Shown: positions 8,363 to 17,551 of the stretch, piece by piece | Position numbering within the stretch: the first letter of the stretch is position 1 | Layout of the letters: every line of letters starts with the position of its first letter | Origin: Candidatus Heimdallarchaeota archaeon | GTDB lineage: Archaea > Asgardarchaeota > Heimdallarchaeia > Heimdallarchaeales > Heimdallarchaeaceae | Assembly: GCA_016840095.1 (NCBI GenBank) | Contig: JAEOSZ010000109.1 | Span: 1 to 38,965 of the forward strand | Direction of reading: 5' to 3' | Length of the DNA: 38,965 bases | Notes under the pieces: model-generated | What the model saw: only the letters and a program-made list of their open reading frames with translations | The model's database searches: none | What the model was told of the DNA's origin: nothing | Program-made: the position numbers and the translations under genes

Positions 8363-10798
8363 TTAGTATTGACTTGGAGGACTTGCGGGAGTTTTTGATT
8401 TTATTTTAGGAATAACTACCCTAAATACTACAAATACTAAAATACCAAGACCAATAACTCCACCTATTGCAGCTAATGCAATTATTCCAGCTAGACCTAA
8501 TCCTTTAGATATTATTGATGCCATTGATTCAATTGGGGCACATGCATAAGGTGTGAATACAAACTCAACATTGCCACTCAGATCGATGTGTTCAACTCCA
8601 AACATGAAAATCATATTAGGATCTAGCACTCGAAATTCTGTATCAAAAGTAACACGGGTGATGTTAGAACTATCATAATTGAAGTTGAAAGTTGAATCTC
8701 CGATATCTAAAGAATAATATTTATTCCAGACAGAATAGAACCAGACAAAGCTGTTAAAGTATGCATCATAATTCATGAAGTTGTACATAGTACTATCCAT
8801 TAGTCCATTTTCAATTACAATATCAACCCTATACCAAGTATTTTCAGGAACTGTAGCACGAATGAGATAGTAGTCGTATTCGTTTGTTGTGTTATCGAAA
8901 GCATCACTTAATGAGAATCTTCCTTCTTTATCAACAACTGGTTCAAAGTATTTTACATTGACATCGTCGAAATCTTCAGGTAACCCTGAATCTGTTTTGA
9001 ATTGGAGTTCTACAGCCTCTGGATCAGTGAATGCTAATCCCTTTGGTCCAGCATATCCAGTATTGTTGTAAACATCCAGTACTTCAAACAAAATGTAACG
9101 TATGGTTGGTTCTCCAGTTGAAAGGAAATTAAGAATCTGTAAATCATTAAATGGATATCCTTCATAAACTCCATCCACTTGTTGATTACCAACAGTTGTA
9201 GTACCACTAGTCCAATCAAGGATTGGATTATTTTCAAGATAGGTAGTATATGCAAAATCTACAGTTCTGTTTTGTTGTGTCAGTAAGCTGAAATTGTAGT
9301 TATGATAAGCAAAATCTGTGTGTGTAACCTTATAAAGTCGTAAATTCGATGGATCTCCATCTCGTTTACTAACTGTAAAGCTTGTTGAATCTACAAAATC
9401 CTCTGCAAGTACTGCATTATATTCAAGATTGAAATCGTATAAACCTTCGTATGGATTAAAGAAGTAATAATACCCAGGCTGAAGCAGTAACATTGTCGGA
9501 TTAATACCGTTAGTGTTTATTGTATAATAGTTTCCAAACATTAAATTCTTATCTCTATAACTCACCATCCAAAGAGTGTGTGATCCAGATGAAATATTGA
9601 AATAAGCAATTTGAGTTTGTCTTACATCTATTCCAAAACTAATGTAGTTATCTTCATATTCATAGATTTCTCCTGGTTGTAATTTTAGAGTGTCCAGCTC
9701 ATTAACAGCAAATATGTAATCGAATTCAACATAGTCATTATTGTCTCTTTCTGCAGTAATGTATACAAGAACTTTTGTGTCATAATCGAAACTGAATATA
9801 GCTGTATCAGCATATGATGACCCAATATTGAGGTTTAGATATTGAGGTGATGATGCTGACTCATAATACAAACTAGGAATGTAAACATATGCATTTGATG
9901 ATATACCTCCATCAAATCTAATATACTTAAACTCGTAAACACCTTTTGGAATATTCACAAAGTAAGCATCTACACTTTCCGAATTATCGTTATCTACAAA
10001 AACTTGTCTTGCTTCATCCCATATGTTATTTGGATCATTAACAAATGAACCAGCTACAAAGTCTCCTGCAGATATTGAGGATACGTCAATTTTAACAGGA
10101 TCAAACACAACATAATTATTAGAGTTAGAGTAAAGGTAGATGTAATAATCACCAGATCCTCTAGCTGCCAGAGGTTGTATATTTCGTGTTTCACCATTAA
10201 TAGATCCAGATCTGCTTAAGTAATCATTGTAATAAATATAGTATGAAACAGAATTGATTGATTTCAAATTTAAGTCGTACATGTCTCCAGCTTGTAAATG
10301 AACTTTGAAAACATAGTAAGTATCTTGTTCCATTTCAATAGCTGTTTCTGAGCCCATAGAAAGTGTTCCTTGGTCGTTTACACCTGTTGTAAAAATCAAA
10401 TTTGCTTCTGTACCAGTATCATTTTCTGCTTGAACATATATAGGATGATATTCCCAAACTGATTGTTCAACATCATATCTAGCATAGTCATCATAATATG
10501 TATTTGCTAGATTCGTTCTAAAAATAGATGTATCATTTGCCATACCATGTGAAGCTGTGCCAATTTCTTCTTTTACATAATTCACAGTTGTAGCATATTG
10601 AGTTTCTAACAGTTGGTTTTCTCTTAGACGGTTACCATCAAGAACCCCATATCCTACATTATCGTAATAATTTAACGATACTTCATTAGTTTCATTCAAA
10701 TCATAAGCTAATGAATTTATTGAAATGAAAGTAAATGAAACAAGAAGGGAAGTGAGAATGTAAAAAAGAGCTATTTTTTTCTTTTTTTGATTAATCAT
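8363..10798 (-). CDS. Large secreted, C-terminally membrane-anchored surface protein of unknown function
   Basis: Basic plus hydrophobic signal peptide (QKKKKIALFYIL...SLA), Tyr/Asn/Asp-rich beta-strand ectodomain with many N-x-S/T sequons, Gly-rich C-terminal TM helix, short tail KIKSKTPASPPSQY. Confidence 0.8.
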   Translation of the reverse strand: MINQKKKKIALFYILTSLLVSFTFISINSLAYDLNETNEVSLNYYDNVGYGVLDGNRLRENQLLETQYATTVNYVKEEIGTASHGMANDTSIFRTNLANTYYDDYARYDVEQSVWEYHPIYVQAENDTGTEANLIFTTGVNDQGTLSMGSETAIEMEQDTYYVFKVHLQAGDMYDLNLKSINSVSYYIYYNDYLSRSGSINGETRNIQPLAARGSGDYYIYLYSNSNNYVVFDPVKIDVSSISAGDFVAGSFVNDPNNIWDEARQVFVDNDNSESVDAYFVNIPKGVYEFKYIRFDGGISSNAYVYIPSLYYESASSPQYLNLNIGSSYADTAIFSFDYDTKVLVYITAERDNNDYVEFDYIFAVNELDTLKLQPGEIYEYEDNYISFGIDVRQTQIAYFNISSGSHTLWMVSYRDKNLMFGNYYTINTNGINPTMLLLQPGYYYFFNPYEGLYDFNLEYNAVLAEDFVDSTSFTVSKRDGDPSNLRLYKVTHTDFAYHNYNFSLLTQQNRTVDFAYTTYLENNPILDWTSGTTTVGNQQVDGVYEGYPFNDLQILNFLSTGEPTIRYILFEVLDVYNNTGYAGPKGLAFTDPEAVELQFKTDSGLPEDFDDVNVKYFEPVVDKEGRFSLSDAFDNTTNEYDYYLIRATVPENTWYRVDIVIENGLMDSTMYNFMNYDAYFNSFVWFYSVWNKYYSLDIGDSTFNFNYDSSNITRVTFDTEFRVLDPNMIFMFGVEHIDLSGNVEFVFTPYACAPIESMASIISKGLGLAGIIALAAIGGVIGLGILVFVVFRVVIPKIKSKTPASPPSQY

Positions 10799-13199: not shown

Positions 13200-13256
13200 A
13201 ATAGATTCTAAGAAATTAAGCCAAAACTATATAAAATTGCAGAATTTCTAATACTC

Positions 13257-14354
13257 ATGGTTTGGATTTCGTATGGAATAGGGATAGTATCAATATTCTT
13301 CCTACTCCTTGGGGCAATTCTGGTAATCGGGAAGCAAATACGAACTTCATCATTATCAGCGTATTTCTTTTTATCCCTGATTCTTTGTGTAATGGGATGG
13401 ATAATTAGTAATATTTTTGTTGTCTATTTAAGTCAGAGAGCAAGAGAAAGTGACGCCTTATTTGCTTCAAGATTTGCTACAATAATTAGTATGGTAGGTA
13501 TGATTGCAACTGTCTTATTTGCTCTAACAGTAAGCCCTAGACAGAGATTCAACCCTATAATTATCTCTATTGCCATATTTCTTTTAGGAGGAGTTATAGG
13601 ATTAACAGTCTCAGGAGATTATACAGTAACTCTGTTACCAGTTATAGGAGGAGACTATTATTTTTACATTGCTCAGACAAGTATAACCTGGGTTATTTTT
13701 GATACAGGACTAGTGCTATTTGCAGGAACTGTGTTTCTTGTGTATTTAGCTAAGCAAAGAGGTTTCGTAGAGGAAAAACATCAAAGAGTCATTGAAATTA
13801 TGATTTTAGGAGTTATTGTAGCTTACTTCTTTAGCGCCATTCTATTTGCAACAACAAAAATAATCTACGCAATCACTGGAGAAATAATGTTATTACATAT
13901 GGAATGGGGATCGGTTGCAGTAGGAGCACTAATAATAGGCATTTCAATTTATATGGGAGGAATAGAAGCTTTTTACTATTCTACAGAAATTCATTCGATT
14001 GACATTTTTGATAAAGCTGGAAGTTCTATATATTCAGCATCCGCAAAAAAGAGGTTGAAGGCAAGGAATCATACGATTCTTAGTATAACGACGGCTTTTT
14101 CTGAATTTGCGGGAGAATTAATAGGAAAAGATGTATATCCCAAAGAAATTGATTTAGGAGATTCTTCACTTATGATTGAAACAAAGGATAATTTTGTTTG
14201 CTTCTTGTGTAGCAGAATACCAACAACATATTTACGTCAAGCTATAAAGCATCTTCTTGAGGATTTAACACCAAATATATCAGAAACAGATATATCTTCC
14301 TTAGTAGAAAAATATCTAGCATTTCAACCGATTTTATCTAATCAAATCGAGTAG
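13257..14354 (+). CDS. 7-TM membrane protein with C-terminal longin-like domain
   Basis: Seven hydrophobic segments in aa ~1-235, then IHSIDIFDKAGSSIYS...ITTAFSEFAGEL...KEIDLGDSSLMIE..DNFVCFLCS...LRQAIKHLLE, a beta-beta-alpha-beta-beta-beta-alpha-alpha pattern typical of longin folds. Confidence 0.7.
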   Translation: MVWISYGIGIVSIFFLLLGAILVIGKQIRTSSLSAYFFLSLILCVMGWIISNIFVVYLSQRARESDALFASRFATIISMVGMIATVLFALTVSPRQRFNPIIISIAIFLLGGVIGLTVSGDYTVTLLPVIGGDYYFYIAQTSITWVIFDTGLVLFAGTVFLVYLAKQRGFVEEKHQRVIEIMILGVIVAYFFSAILFATTKIIYAITGEIMLLHMEWGSVAVGALIIGISIYMGGIEAFYYSTEIHSIDIFDKAGSSIYSASAKKRLKARNHTILSITTAFSEFAGELIGKDVYPKEIDLGDSSLMIETKDNFVCFLCSRIPTTYLRQAIKHLLEDLTPNISETDISSLVEKYLAFQPILSNQIE

Positions 14355-14357
14355 AAT

Positions 14358-14384
14358 CTTTTTCTTTTTCTTTTTCTTTTTCTT
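14358..14384 (+). terminator. (TTTTTC)n oligo-T terminator
   Basis: About four tandem TTTTTC units directly after the TAG stop. Confidence 0.6.
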
Positions 14385-14398
14385 CAAAAGCTTAATAA
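14385..14398 (+). promoter_or_regulatory. BRE-TATA promoter (CAAAAG-CTTAATAA)
   Basis: Purine-rich BRE followed by a TTAATAA box. The predicted TSS ~14421-14422 coincides with the 5' base of the downstream hairpin. Confidence 0.5.
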
Positions 14399-14620: not shown

Positions 14621-17551
14621 ATGACTTTTCTAGATGAAATACGTGAAATTGAAAAAAAATGGCAAAAAAAATGGCAAGAAGACCAAATATTTGTTGGTAA
14701 TGTAGATAGCTCAAGACCTAAGTGGTTTTTAACTGTATCCTATCCCTATGTTCAAGCTCCTTTTCATATAGGTCATAGTCGGACTTATGGATTAGGAGAT
14801 ATCTTTGCTCGTTACAAAAGACAAAGAGGATTTAATGTTTTATGGCCAATGGGATTTCATATTACAGGCACACCTGTCCTCGCTGTATCTTGGAAAATTA
14901 AGAATAAAGATGAAAACGAATGGGAAAAATATCGTGATTATGTCTCAATCTATGAAGATGATGAGCAAAGAATAGAAGAACTAGTTGCTTCTTTTGCAGA
15001 GCCTGAAAATGTAGCAAATTATTTCTCCGAAAAAATAATCAATGATTTTCTCCTAATGGGATATTCACTTGATACTACAAGACAATTCACTACAGGTGAT
15101 AAAGATTATAATAAATTCATTGAGTGGCAGTATTTTAAACTAGATGATAAAAATCTTATTTCAAAAGGAAACCATCCAATTCTATGGTGTGTGAATGATA
15201 AAAATGCTGTTGGTGAAGATGATATACAATCAGGGGATGAACTAAAAGTAGAAGTTTCTGAATTTGTTGGTATTAAGTTTAAACTTGATAATGGAACATT
15301 TCTAGTTGCAGCAACTCTTCGTCCTGAAACTATATATGGTGCAACCAATGTTTGGATTCACCCTGAAGCTTCATACAATGAAATTACAATTAATAGTGAG
15401 AAATGGATAGTTTCTAAAGAAGCTACTATGAAGTTAATAGAACAAAATCATGAGATTGAGATTATAAGAGAATTAGAAGGTAAAGAATTATTGGATAAGA
15501 ATGTTGAAGTTCCTCTAACAAAAGCCAAAATACCAATTTATCCTGCAATTTTTGTTGATACTGATCATGCTACCGGAGTTGTGTATAGCGTCCCAGGTCA
15601 TGCACCTTATGATTATGCAGCTTTAATGGATTTGCAAAAAGATGAAGAAACCATCTTGAGTTACAACTTGGATTCAGAGAAGTTAAAGCAAATTAATCCG
15701 ATATCTTTGATAGAAGTAAAAGAATATGGAGAATTTCCTGCTGTTGAAATATGCCAAAAATTGGGAATAGAATCTCAAAAAGATACTGAAAAATTAGAAG
15801 AAGCTACTCAGACAATCTACAAAGATGAATATTATTCTGGAAAAATGAAGGATAATACTGGAGAATTTAAAGGATTAAAAGTTGAAGAAGCAAAGGATAG
15901 AGTTGCTTTTAGTCTATTAGAAATAAACCTAGCTGCACCAATATATGAACCATCTACTAAAGCATTTTGTAGATGTGGTGGTCAAATTGTTGTTGCTATA
16001 ATCCAGAATCAATACTTCTTGAATTATGGTGATAAAGAATGGAAGGAAGGTGCTTTCAAAGCATTAGATAAGATGCGTATCATCCCTGAAAAATACAGGT
16101 TAAGCTTTGAAAATACATTTCATTGGCTGAATCAAAGACCTTGTGTCAGAAGACGAGGATTAGGTACAGAATTTCCTTTTACTAAAGGAGAAGGATGGAT
16201 AATAGAATCTTTAAGTGACTCAGTCATCTACATGTCCTTCTATACTATCATCAGACATATTAGAACTAACAAGATTAAACCTGATCAACTTAAACCAGAA
16301 TTGTTTAGTTATGTGTTTCTGAATGAAGGAAACATCAAAGAAGTAAGTAAGAATACTTCAGTATCAGAAGACATTCTTAAACAGATGAAAGAAGAATTTG
16401 AGTACTGGTATCCAAATGACTTAAGACATACTGGTATTCATCATATCTCAAACCATTTGTCATTTGCAATTTTCCATCATGTTGCAGTATTCCCAGAAAA
16501 ATACTGGTTACCAGCGTTCTCAATAAATGAGATGCTCAGTTATGAAGGAGAAGCAATGAGCAAAAGTAGGGGAAACGTAATTCCCATAGCTCACATACCA
16601 AAAAGATATAGTGTCGATCTAACAAGATTGCATTTAGCTGCTGTTGCAACAGCAGATACTGTTGTAGATTGGAAAGAATCTGAGGTAAGTTTTGCCCAAC
16701 AAAGAATGAAGAAGTTTTGGGATTATGCATTAAGCATAATTGATGTGGAAAAGGCAAATGGGTATGATTGTTCTTTTCCATCTAAGGTATTTCTTTCTTC
16801 AGTCAAAACAAATCTAGAATTAGCAATAAAAGCAATTGAAAATTTCAATGTAAGAGACTATATTTTAGAGGGTTACTATACAAATATTAAAGCTATTGAT
16901 ACTTTTCAGAAACTAGCAGAACACTTACCTGAGGTTGAAAGAAAAGCTGTTCTAAGAGATGTTATTGAATTAATGGTTATTCTTATGGCTCCCGCTATTC
17001 CTCATATCTGTGAGGAATTAAATGAAAGAATGGGATATAGTGACTATGTTTCATTGAAGCTGATACCTGAAATAGAAATAACTGAAGAAGATAAAATCTA
17101 CGCTCTCCAAGCTAAATACATGGAAAATCTGATAGAGGATATTGAGCAAATTGTAAAGCTTGTCAAGAAACAACCAAAGAAAATTCATATCTACATAAAT
17201 GCAGATTGGAAGAATACATTGTATTCATTGGCTAATGATATTTTCAAAGAAGAAGCAGTTCAAATAAACAAAATTATGCCAGAAGCAAAAGCCAACAAAG
17301 AACTAAGTAACTATATGAAAGAAGTTGCAAACGAAGCAAAACTAATGTTAAAGGATCCCACAATATTCAGAATTAAGATGCTTAATTCAGAAGATCAGAA
17401 GAAAGCAATTGAAGGGTATCTGAAATTTATCAGTAAAAAATATGGTGGCTCAGAAATCTTGATTCATCTAGCAGATGATAAAGAGATTTACGATCCTCAA
17501 AATAAAGCTTCAAAAGCTAGGCCAATGAAACCAGCTCTGTTGTTGGAATAA
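14621..17551 (+). CDS. leuS: Leucine--tRNA ligase, archaeal/eukaryotic type
   Basis: YPY..PFHIGH, ATLRPET and SVPGHAPYDY (CP1 editing), IESLSDS, YWYP, AMSKS, C-terminal KARPMKP. AGGAGG RBS. Confidence 0.96.
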   Translation: MTFLDEIREIEKKWQKKWQEDQIFVGNVDSSRPKWFLTVSYPYVQAPFHIGHSRTYGLGDIFARYKRQRGFNVLWPMGFHITGTPVLAVSWKIKNKDENEWEKYRDYVSIYEDDEQRIEELVASFAEPENVANYFSEKIINDFLLMGYSLDTTRQFTTGDKDYNKFIEWQYFKLDDKNLISKGNHPILWCVNDKNAVGEDDIQSGDELKVEVSEFVGIKFKLDNGTFLVAATLRPETIYGATNVWIHPEASYNEITINSEKWIVSKEATMKLIEQNHEIEIIRELEGKELLDKNVEVPLTKAKIPIYPAIFVDTDHATGVVYSVPGHAPYDYAALMDLQKDEETILSYNLDSEKLKQINPISLIEVKEYGEFPAVEICQKLGIESQKDTEKLEEATQTIYKDEYYSGKMKDNTGEFKGLKVEEAKDRVAFSLLEINLAAPIYEPSTKAFCRCGGQIVVAIIQNQYFLNYGDKEWKEGAFKALDKMRIIPEKYRLSFENTFHWLNQRPCVRRRGLGTEFPFTKGEGWIIESLSDSVIYMSFYTIIRHIRTNKIKPDQLKPELFSYVFLNEGNIKEVSKNTSVSEDILKQMKEEFEYWYPNDLRHTGIHHISNHLSFAIFHHVAVFPEKYWLPAFSINEMLSYEGEAMSKSRGNVIPIAHIPKRYSVDLTRLHLAAVATADTVVDWKESEVSFAQQRMKKFWDYALSIIDVEKANGYDCSFPSKVFLSSVKTNLELAIKAIENFNVRDYILEGYYTNIKAIDTFQKLAEHLPEVERKAVLRDVIELMVILMAPAIPHICEELNERMGYSDYVSLKLIPEIEITEEDKIYALQAKYMENLIEDIEQIVKLVKKQPKKIHIYINADWKNTLYSLANDIFKEEAVQINKIMPEAKANKELSNYMKEVANEAKLMLKDPTIFRIKMLNSEDQKKAIEGYLKFISKKYGGSEILIHLADDKEIYDPQNKASKARPMKPALLLE

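Follow-up and report, generated by a model that had tools for sequence, protein, structure and literature searches.

A seven-helix membrane module related to HisKA_7TM and a predicted longin domain joined in one Asgard archaeal protein

What does a protein do that joins seven membrane helices to a longin-like domain inside the cell? The question is raised by one coding sequence in a 38,965 nt stretch of DNA from Candidatus Heimdallarchaeota archaeon (contig JAEOSZ010000109.1, assembly GCA_016840095.1), referred to here as the window. In this one Asgard protein, a sensor module otherwise present on archaeal histidine kinases is joined to a eukaryote-style longin domain. Asgard archaea have dozens of small GTPases as well as longin and roadblock proteins, and the 7TM-longin protein could be a direct line from the cell surface to the small-GTPase or adaptor machinery.

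The gene and its surroundings

The gene and the two signals that flank it are:

13257..14354, + strand: coding sequence of the 7TM-longin protein (P0001), 365 aa, ATG start, stop codon included
13228..13236, + strand: TATA-like box TATATAAAA, read from the sequence, some 21-29 nt before the ATG
14359..14385, + strand: T-rich tract, (TTTTTC)x4 then TTC, beginning 5 nt past the stop codon

The open reading frame is a real, conserved gene, with full-length homologues and a conserved N-terminus. Fifteen proteins match at E<=1e-3 in a collection of 5.8 billion proteins, and 14 of these are full length (362-372 aa, 53-100% identity), with M1 and W3 invariant among the homologues. The architecture is distributed Asgard-wide, across many families of the phylum. 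With regard to expression, no RNA run is listed among five runs, which come from two sediment-metagenome studies. No longer fused form of the whole protein is found at E<=1e-3, which is weak evidence because the search is word-based.

In archaea, transcription starts about 26 nt downstream of the TATA box. The position of the box thus suggests a promoter belonging to this gene alone and an mRNA with a short leader or none. Oligo-T tracts end archaeal transcription, and the tract behind the stop codon is likely such a terminator and sets the 7TM-longin gene apart from LeuRS at 14621. The putative promoter and terminator together suggest a separate transcription unit.

The LeuRS gene directly downstream could indicate that the 7TM-longin protein is a functional partner of leucyl-tRNA synthetase, acting as an amino-acid sensing module. 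LeuRS, or an ORF of 976-989 aa, follows in all 12 close loci with a visible downstream side (confirmed by Pfam in L007 and L014), and LeuRS also follows in the metagenome locus L030 and in the window. However, all 20 further loci, in other genera and families, have lost the adjacency, and one of these 20 has LeuRS nearby on the other strand. In addition, the 7TM-longin gene carries a promoter-like box and a T-rich terminator of its own, the latter ahead of a spacer of 266 bp. We therefore read the adjacency as inherited gene order and reject a coupling to LeuRS as highly improbable.

The membrane half and its relation to HisKA_7TM

The protein consists of the following parts:

13257..13982, + strand: seven-helix membrane module, residues 1-242 (AlphaFold2 model, hydropathy, K/R bias, hhalign against HisKA_7TM)
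13626..13673, + strand: beta-hairpin between TM4 and TM5, residues 124-139, predicted extracellular (strands from the AlphaFold2 model, side from the K/R topology)
13956..13988, + strand: juxtamembrane stretch GGIEAFYYSTE, residues 234-244, joining TM7 to the first longin strand
13989..14318, + strand: predicted cytoplasmic longin domain, residues 245-354 (fold model, structure matches, conservation)

AlphaFold2 places TM1-TM7 at residues 2-30, 33-60, 64-92, 100-117, 143-170, 173-207 and 215-232 (mean pLDDT 73.4), in agreement with Kyte-Doolittle hydropathy. The loop between TM4 and TM5, DYTVTLLPVIGGDYYFY, folds as two strands, residues 124-129 and 135-139 (block pLDDT 77-80), and is flanked by D121, Y122, T141, W145 and D149, all invariant in the homologue alignment. 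Conserved acidic and histidine residues (D121, D149, H214 and E216) lie near the outer face. The juxtamembrane stretch is helical in the model (residues 235-244), and its motif [IV]EAF[YF]YS[TS]E is, together with the PKEID loop of the longin domain, the most conserved part of the family. At E<=1, no kinase, cyclase or other Pfam domain matches the protein, save two chance-level TM matches. The seven helices, the hairpin-like loop and the missing kinase or cyclase output that an earlier, sequence-only reading had proposed are all recovered here.

The topology can be read from the charge of the loops. In 14 homologues, the average numbers of K/R in loops 1, 3 and 5 are 2.3+2.0+4.6 versus 1.1+1.1+0.3 in loops 2, 4 and 6. 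This bias points to an N-terminus outside and a C-terminus inside the cell. The C-terminal domain is thus cytoplasmic, as had been assumed, which fits the cytoplasmic kinase domains on homologous 7TM modules.

Profile-profile alignment reveals where the membrane half probably comes from. When 20 TM halves are aligned with 12 Asgard HisKA_7TM regions using hhalign, the probability is 93.5% (E 2.3e-7, score 53.0, 203 columns), and the alignment is nearly full length, columns 18-232 versus 7-220 of 226. The controls stay far below this score, at 16.5-17.2 for reversed profiles and no more than 29.9 in 20 block shuffles. The close subfamily alone reaches only 51.8% and the distant group alone 81.2%. 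By these alignments the membrane half is remotely homologous to HisKA_7TM, so the resemblance noticed earlier is more than superficial, and it can be suggested that the protein contains a kinase-type sensor module whose output has been swapped for a longin domain.

The Pfam model of HisKA_7TM (PF16927, cut-off 28.6 bits) does not match the window protein at E<=1 and has no match in its own genome, which is 89% complete. Two of the 21 family members match it; the best, P0029, covers the full-length model at 21 bits (E 3.4e-4), i.e., below the cut-off. In the ESM Atlas, the best value for the N-terminal half is 0.86, and one cluster carries HisKA_7TM on 10% of its members; being below 0.9, this is a lead only.

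HisKA_7TM is counted among the sensor domains of archaeal kinases in the relevant passage of PMC5847659. In true Asgard HisKA_7TM proteins (L054 and L055), the bundle is followed by PAS, HisKA and HATPase_c domains. The 7TM-longin protein has a homologous bundle in the same orientation, with the output inside the cell, and a K-Q...G motif at the TM5-TM6 cytoplasmic loop is common to both. In contrast to the kinases, it has no PAS, HisKA or HATPase_c domain, and the longin domain follows TM7 instead. Two short HisKA_7TM proteins, L061 and L063, were considered as bridging proteins and rejected, as neither has a longin domain after the bundle (L063 domain E>=1.1, L061 no match).

We know of no ligand or signal for any HisKA_7TM domain, and of no function for the fold. 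This leaves room for a transporter, channel or membrane enzyme with the longin domain as a regulatory appendage, where D121, D149, H214 and E216 could line an ion or substrate path. However, neither the protein nor its 21 relatives match any transporter or enzyme family in Pfam, the homologous module is the input domain of kinases, and 49 of the best 50 fold matches of the TM half are GPCRs or GPCR-like bundles by title. We therefore consider this explanation very unlikely.

The likeness to GPCRs would be one of architecture at most. Like them, the protein has seven helices, with a K/R bias for N-out/C-in topology, and the model aligns to GPCRs of several classes with Z 12.4-16.4 and rmsd 3.4-5.0 over 207-228 residues. 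The structure-comparison tool itself notes, however, that helical bundles commonly reach Z values near 14, so the similar helix arrangement may reflect no more than a general architecture. No GPCR family in Pfam matches the protein or its 21 relatives. DRY and NPxxY are signature motifs of GPCRs; the sequence lacks the former, and its TM7 lacks the latter. Further, the output of GPCRs is a heterotrimeric G protein, while here it is a fused domain. A search by sequence with the full-length profile against solved structures gives the motilin receptor as the best match, which is not significant (E 0.26). One rhodopsin, 7ytb_A, is among the best 50 fold matches. In 13 of 14 homologues, however, TM7 has no lysine that could serve as the retinal site of microbial rhodopsins, and the single K lies at the cytoplasmic end.

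The cytoplasmic domain

The C-terminal domain begins at about residue 243, which corresponds to base 13983. Modelled in isolation from an alignment of 24 rows, residues 243-365 give a structure with pLDDT 88.8 and pTM 0.81 and the elements E3-10, E15-20, H29-47, E55-57, E62-68, E71-77, H82-93 and H101-112. This is the longin order, two strands, a helix, three strands and two helices, and it is seen in both the isolated and the full-length models. The conserved loop V[YF]PKEID covers residues 293-299.

In the VIA comparison, all best 50 rows for the isolated domain belong to the longin/roadblock superfamily. CPLANE chain 7q3d_C comes first, with Z 11.4 and an rmsd of 2.4 across 106 residues. 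Among these 50, the longin matches have Z 9.3-11.4 and rmsd 2.2-3.3 with 99-115 residues aligned, from model residue 1/2 to 111/116. They include AP-2/3/4 sigma and mu, Sec22, TRAPP and Mon1-Ccz1 (5ldd_E, Z 9.9); AP sigma/mu, the VAMP7 longin, TRAPP Trs23/Bet5 and Mon1-Ccz1 span model residues 2-115 at Z 9.7-11. The top Foldseek match is Mon1-Ccz1-Bulli (8c7g_C, E 1e-4). The domain thus has a longin fold and not PAS or GAF, in line with the longin-like domain that the sequence-only reading had placed at this position.

At the sequence level, the domain matches no Pfam family at E<=1, including Fuz_longin_1 (PF19036). A search of solved structures with the longin family profile gives RsgI9 (E 0.048) as the best match, with TRAPP Trs23 at E 1.1, none of them significant. 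In the ESM Atlas the best value is 0.83, to Asgard clusters of about 133-140 aa with Fuz_longin_1 on 22-34% of members; as this is below 0.9, we use it as a lead only.

Members of the roadblock/LC7 family have an N-terminal helix before the first strand, lack a second C-terminal helix and match Robl_LC7 (PF03259). The window domain ends in two helices and has no match to PF03259, and roadblock structures align only to model residues 1-100, with Z<=9.2. We therefore place it outside this family. The roadblock platforms of MglB-MglA and Ragulator-Rag have a similar core fold (Z 8.1-9.2 in VIA) and the same general logic, a small alpha/beta platform docking a Ras-like GTPase. They differ from the window domain in covering only its first 100 residues, without the two C-terminal longin helices.

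The best structural matches come from the tri-longin Rab exchange factors (Mon1-Ccz1, Fuzzy-Inturned/CPLANE and HPS1-HPS4/BLOC-3), namely from the first longin domain of each. However, these factors have three tandem longins per subunit and are recruited to membranes, while the window protein has a single longin domain, ends at residue 365 and is fused to a polytopic membrane module.

Longin domains also act without GTPases, for example in SNAREs and in adaptor sigma/mu subunits, and both of these types are among the best 50 VIA matches. The protein could thus be a structural or trafficking protein, in which the longin domain marks or sorts a membrane region and the 7TM part is a mere anchor. 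The good matches to VAMP7, Sec22, the SRX domain of the SRP receptor and the AP/COPI small subunits (Z 8.5-11 in VIA) would agree with this. However, seven conserved helices, invariant polar residues and a conserved hairpin exceed the needs of an anchor, the bundle and the sensor module of kinases are homologous, and the chain stops at residue 365 with no SNARE or coiled-coil segment after the longin domain. A purely structural or trafficking role is for these reasons quite unlikely.

The 7TM-longin protein is part of a large and shuffled Asgard repertoire of longin and roadblock proteins and their fusions, as far as passages of two studies describe it (10.1101/2020.10.19.343400; PMC10933270). 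It is not described in those passages of Liu et al. 2020 (10.1101/2020.10.19.343400) and Tran et al. 2024 (PMC10933270). The word "transmembrane" occurs 0 times in the latter, and "7TM" and "transmembrane" 0 times in the main text of the Liu preprint, whose supplementary tables and Fig. 5c may list the protein.

Candidate partners and a possible mechanism

We tentatively suggest that the 7TM-longin protein is a signal-responsive membrane sensor, with the longin domain as a docking platform in the cytoplasm. What docks there may be a GTPase or a paralogous longin protein, or the two together. Here we infer that the protein signals at all, as well as what it senses and what binds the longin domain.

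The input would be the seven-helix bundle of HisKA_7TM lineage, with its conserved polar cluster and beta-hairpin on the outer face. The output would be the cytoplasmic longin domain, of Fuz/Mon1 first-longin type, in the usual place of the kinase, and the short invariant juxtamembrane helix would couple it rigidly to TM7. A change in the bundle, caused by a ligand, an ion or the state of the membrane, could then (i) alter the presentation or pairing of the longin domain at the inner membrane face and (ii) thereby switch the docking of the partner. This partner would most likely be one of the about 40 Ras-superfamily GTPases of the genome, possibly joined by a paralogous longin protein, e.g., a TPR-longin scaffold. 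Prediction of a longin homodimer (residues 243-360, two copies) gives 0.32, 0.29 and 0.33 against a mark of 0.42, which speaks neither for nor against pairing.

The genome has 40 Ras-family and 9 Roadblock matches, and eukaryotic longin pairs in comparable platforms bind Rab, Arf or Rag GTPases. The sequence-only reading had gone further and proposed direct signalling to a small GTPase, an analogue of GPCR-GEF signalling. The locus offers no evidence of such a link. No GTPase gene was found on the 39-kb contig of the window, and among 94 neighbour proteins scanned around the relatives a single one is a Ras-family GTPase, two genes away and in one genus, i.e., there is no conserved GTPase neighbour. 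Moreover, 106 longer proteins share the longin subtype, and the Pfam records of all of them are free of GTPase domains. The GPCR-GEF analogue is therefore a hypothesis that derives from the roles of eukaryotic longins, plausible by analogy.

In its strongest form this would be a one-protein switch, where an outer stimulus repositions or pairs the Mon1/Fuzzy-type longin, which in turn recruits a Rab/Arf/Rag-like Asgard GTPase to the membrane or catalyses its nucleotide exchange. We regard this specific form as unlikely. If true, longin-based exchange factors would have a forerunner in prokaryotes, and the switch would resemble receptor-to-G-protein signalling in function but not by homology.

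As a separate observation, with a threshold set post hoc and not counted here, four of the nine loci in this genome with the longin subtype have a Ras-family match at a distance of up to about 8 kb, where about 1.5 would be expected; none is adjacent.

The paralogues in the genome allow another reading, a longin-longin adaptor network without a GTPase. The 7TM protein and giant single-pass proteins would recruit TPR-longin scaffolds, or pair with each other, forming a membrane-proximal complex with its output in the TPR part. The family profile finds the longin subtype at eight further places in the same genome, and it is C-terminal in three TPR proteins, two large proteins with one TM segment each, another 7TM protein and a protein with two longin domains. 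The 106 longer carriers are TPR scaffolds, 7TM proteins and giant proteins without Pfam domains, and TPR families are the only Pfam domains on record among them. Eukaryotic longin domains also usually work as pairs of paralogues, as in Mon1-Ccz1 and TRAPP. However, the TPR-longin genes do not adjoin the 7TM-longin gene, and a network entirely free of GTPases seems somewhat doubtful. The adaptor and GTPase readings are compatible, since eukaryotic longin pairs are what bind GTPases.

For the docking-platform reading, the consequences depend on the partner. A GTPase would mean that membrane-localised longin control of small GTPases predates eukaryotes, while a TPR-longin scaffold would define a new archaeal receptor-adaptor system; with either, HisKA_7TM gains a second output context for comparison. 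As an Asgard-wide fusion of a membrane sensor and a longin domain, the protein is also a concrete, expressible entry point to the GTPase and longin proteins of these archaea. The isolated longin domain of 120 residues can be screened against the GTPases and longin paralogues of the genome, and searches for a ligand could be aimed at a defined site, the seven-helix half.

The paralogous domains also hint at the type of longin involved. Fuz_longin_1, which stands for the first longin domain of FUZ/MON1/HPS1, is matched by three of 15 paralogous domains (best E 8.8e-7) and Intu_longin_1 by one of the 15; these are the only longin-type Pfam families that they match. One paralogue, the TPR-longin protein C148, lies at the border of detection, as it scores 28.5 bits against Fuz_longin_1 in six-frame translation and 25.8 bits as an ORF, with the cut-off at 26.1.

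The gene and its membrane half

The gene of the 7TM-longin protein and two adjoining elements read from the sequence are as follows.

13257..14354, + strand: 7TM-longin gene, a 365-aa ORF
21-29 nt upstream of its ATG, + strand: TATATAAAA box
14359-14385: perfect (TTTTTC)x4 repeat, beginning 5 nt past the stop codon

Among 5.8 billion proteins searched by word index, 15 matched, 14 of them full length (362-372 aa, 53-100% identity), and exhaustive HMMER comparison with 1.84 billion cluster representatives gave 21 matches, ten of them below 1e-30. In the alignment of the 14 homologues the mean column identity is 73% and the N-terminus is conserved, which together with the matches shows that this is a real gene under selection. 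The named relatives are 'hypothetical proteins' from Heimdallarchaeota or Heimdallarchaeaceae MAGs. Archaeal promoters and oligo-T termination are well established, and read against them the box and the T tract make the gene look like a transcription unit of its own.

The AlphaFold2 full-length model, built from the 14-row alignment (mean pLDDT 73.4, pTM 0.64), has seven long helices, with which hydropathy concurs, and a two-stranded hairpin (124-129 / 135-139) in the TM4-TM5 interval. This hairpin coincides with the loop quoted in the sequence-only reading, and the seven helices and the hairpin described there are thus confirmed. Across the 14 homologues, the mean number of K/R is 8.9 in the odd loops vs 2.5 in the even loops. 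This excess gives an N-out, C-in topology, so that the longin domain lies on the cytoplasmic side, as had been proposed. The polar residues S59, Q60, D121, Y122, T141, W145, D149, T207, H214 and E216 at the outer helix ends are invariant, E216 almost so also among distant relatives (21-row alignment), and the cluster is a candidate binding pocket. A retinal protein is excluded because a lysine within TM7 is absent in 13 of the 14 homologues.

In the VIA structure comparison of the TM bundle, titles mark 49 of the 50 rows listed as GPCRs or GPCR-like folds and the remaining one as a rhodopsin (Z 12.4-16.4, rmsd 3.4-5.0, 207-228 residues). Class A GPCRs are also what Foldseek finds (E about 2e-4), and the TM-scores of its listed matches range from 0.23 to 0.50. 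Since helical bundles often score a Z near 14, the modelled likeness to GPCRs probably extends only to the same general seven-helix arrangement.

The resemblance to HisKA_7TM (PF16927), the seven-helix input domain of archaeal histidine kinases, had also been noticed earlier. A Pfam search of the window protein gives no family match, and two of 21 relatives touch HisKA_7TM, the best being P0029 (21 bits over the whole model, under the 28.6-bit cut-off). For a profile comparison, 12 Asgard regions above the PF16927 cut-off were set against 20 TM halves of the 7TM-longin family. Here the hhalign probability is 93.5% (E 2.3e-7, score 53.0), with 203 columns aligned (18-232 vs 7-220 of 226), while reversed profiles score 16.5 and 17.2 and 20 column-block shuffles at most 29.9, with probabilities of at most 20.9%. 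Taken separately, the close subfamily (9 rows) reaches a probability of 51.8% and the distant group (11 rows) one of 81.2%. The score, set against these far lower controls, bears out the resemblance and identifies the TM half as a remote homologue of HisKA_7TM.

In PMC5847659 and PMC6944256, HisKA_7TM is given as a sensor domain of archaeal kinases. The Asgard PF16927 proteins at loci L054 and L055 have PAS, HisKA and HATPase_c behind the bundle. A 653-aa protein from the window's genus (L053:250-2208, - strand) has a strong HisKA_7TM match (226 bits) followed by PAS domains, where PAS_4, PAS_9 and PAS match three stretches each. It has no HisKA or HATPase_c match at E<=0.01 and is another kinase-less HisKA_7TM protein.

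The longin domain

Residues 243-365, folded alone with 24 aligned rows (pLDDT 88.8, pTM 0.81), have the element order of a longin, and all 50 rows listed by VIA belong to the longin/roadblock superfamily. Longins proper (CPLANE 7q3d_C, AP-2/3/4 sigma and mu, VAMP7, Sec22, sedlin, TRAPP Trs23/Bet5, Mon1-Ccz1) match across the whole domain at Z 9.3-11.4, and COPI delta/zeta and DENN are lower (Z 8.7-9.3). Roadblocks (MglB, LAMTOR, Asgard roadblocks), in contrast, have Z<=9.2 and an alignment that ends at residue 100. Foldseek places Mon1-Ccz1-Bulli first (E 1e-4), then TRAPP and AP-2. PAS and GAF proteins are absent from the structural matches listed, and with the element order and the longin/roadblock matches this upholds the longin-like assignment of the C-terminal domain.

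A Pfam search of the window's longin domain gives no family match, and Fuz_longin_1 (PF19036) is matched by three of 15 domains of the same subtype (best E 8.8e-7), Intu_longin_1 by one. Against a Fuz_longin_1 cut-off of 26.1 bits, the copy at C148 in the window's own genome reaches 28.5 when searched in six frames and 25.8 as an ORF. Conservation within the family is highest in two stretches, the juxtamembrane GG[IV]EAF[YF]YS[TS]E, a direct passage from TM7 to the first longin strand, and the loop V[YF]PKEID, behind the long helix of the longin domain.

Distribution and gene neighbourhood

The full-length profile (E<=1e-10) has matches in 108 of the 301 genomes sampled from the phylum, a count that includes longin-only matches. 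Strong full-length matches are found in the window's own family (some match in 28/28 genomes) as well as in one more family of the class (8/11), and weaker matches spanning both halves in further families. All 20 such loci examined have an ORF of 356-403 aa that matches the full-length model (E 2.4e-140 to 5.7e-12); 12 of them come from nine further families (f2, f4, f5, f10, f11, f14, f24, f27, f28), with the longin starting at residue 230-263. With matching ORFs in so many families, the architecture is Asgard-wide.

Some loci hold more than one such gene. At L040:4863-8831, a pair of paralogous 7TM-longin genes (403 and 365 aa) on the same strand is separated by two opposite-strand ORFs (332 and 163 aa) without Pfam match, and L015 and L027 show this arrangement too. 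At L015:11380-12927 and L028:10305-12140 there are genes for a eukaryote-type DNA topoisomerase IB (Topoisom_I, E 1e-59 to 1e-62), a few kb away from paralogous 7TM-longin genes. At L049:2392-5915, three genes in a row on one strand encode proteins of 369, 369 and 380 aa, of which the last is a 7TM-longin, the middle one matches the longin model only and the first matches nothing; the trio may be a tandem paralogue array.

Among close relatives the gene order is Mrp/NUBPL ATPase, DAO-type oxidoreductase, 7TM-longin, LeuRS, Dak2, ThrRS. LeuRS or a LeuRS-sized ORF is next downstream in all 12 close loci whose downstream side can be seen (Pfam-checked in two), and LeuRS is downstream also in the metagenome locus L030. 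This adjacency is found in 0/20 further loci, and the neighbours of distant members are heterogeneous. At the window's 5' end, the Asgard contig starts with two genes, the first highly eukaryote-like.

5-1150, + strand: eukaryote-like actin gene, running off the 5' end (PF00022, E 1.6e-134, 381 aa)
1315-1671: prefoldin subunit gene, behind actin

The 811-aa ORF at 8363-10798 (- strand) has no Pfam family at E<=0.01, and ORFs of 812-835 aa occupy the same syntenic place in the Heimdall loci L002-L011.

A Ras-family GTPase is found once among the 94 neighbouring proteins scanned with Pfam, two genes from the 7TM-longin gene at L043; a sister locus from the same genus has a 182-aa ORF, outside the Pfam scan, at the matching place. 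Ras-family matches number 40 in the window's genome and Roadblock matches 9, all of them on contigs other than the window's.

Other carriers of the longin subtype and a possible role

The longin subtype is a shuffled module. A family profile search finds the same longin domain at eight other places in the window's genome, five of which are listed here.

C148:2732-3082: TPR protein with C-terminal longin subtype
C11:34541-34831: TPR protein with C-terminal longin subtype
C112:1543-1746: TPR protein with C-terminal longin subtype
C25:36843-37067: very large protein, open frame of 1199 aa
C122:134041-134337: very large protein, open frame of 1671 aa

The three TPR-longin frames (L017, L018, L021) have about 680-763 aa, and a form of about 640-680 aa is recurrent in many Asgard genomes. 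The two very large proteins (L022, L024) begin with a long stretch that Pfam does not match, followed by one hydrophobic segment, the longin subtype and a further C-terminal region resembling a small helical domain; the longer carriers include more proteins of this kind, with about 1170-1210 and 1640-1670 aa. Elsewhere the subtype ends a second 7TM protein (C11), opens an open frame whose second half resembles a second copy by eye (C102), or stands behind a coiled region (C7). Other Asgard genomes have it stand-alone (126-141 aa), in two-domain proteins (266-269 aa), in TPR fusions and in a 1137-aa polytopic membrane protein. A profile search aimed at longer carriers gives 106 proteins (252-1976 aa), in which the recorded Pfam domains are TPR families only, the others having none, and a GTPase domain is on record in 0/106. 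Liu et al. (preprint, 10.1101/2020.10.19.343400) have already stressed how extensively domains are shuffled in Asgard longins, fusions to two-component domains included.

Both domain assignments, seven-helix sensor-type and longin, are supported. The architecture would make the protein a one-component membrane sensor whose input module, of the kinase type, acts on a longin output. Direct signalling to a small GTPase, suggested earlier as an analogue of GPCR-GEF signalling, receives no support from gene context (1/94 neighbours) or fusions (0/106 carriers). By the titles of the matched structures, longins elsewhere dock proteins, mostly small GTPases and mostly as paralogue pairs, and a docking role is stated by Tran et al. 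(PMC10933270). On this analogy we tentatively suggest that the 7TM-longin protein could serve, on the inner face of the membrane, as a longin platform that docks a partner in response to a signal, this partner being a small GTPase, a paralogous longin (for example a TPR-longin scaffold) or both. A pure adaptor network, indicated by the fusion partners of the longin subtype, is nearly as good a reading, if in itself a somewhat unlikely one.

Two kinds of protein that are known already, 7TM sensors whose output has been exchanged and Asgard longins fused by shuffling, meet in the 7TM-longin protein, which is a variant of both. Literature searches on Asgard longins, archaeal 7TM proteins and HisKA_7TM found no 7TM-longin protein described in the texts covered. 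Among the ESP families that a 2026 preprint takes over from earlier catalogues, '7TM proteins' and 'TRAPPC2-like longins' are listed separately, and the preprint also has a 'class C GPCR' cluster shared with eukaryotes. Any of these may or may not be the 7TM-longin family.

Two 344-aa open frames in the window's genome, C90:3203-4006 and C62:5865-6668 (both - strand), have a Ras-family GTPase domain (about 60 bits) and downstream of it a weak Fuz_longin_1 match (16 bits, under the cut-off). They are Rag-like GTPase-longin fusions, with a longin subtype that the 7TM-longin family profile misses.
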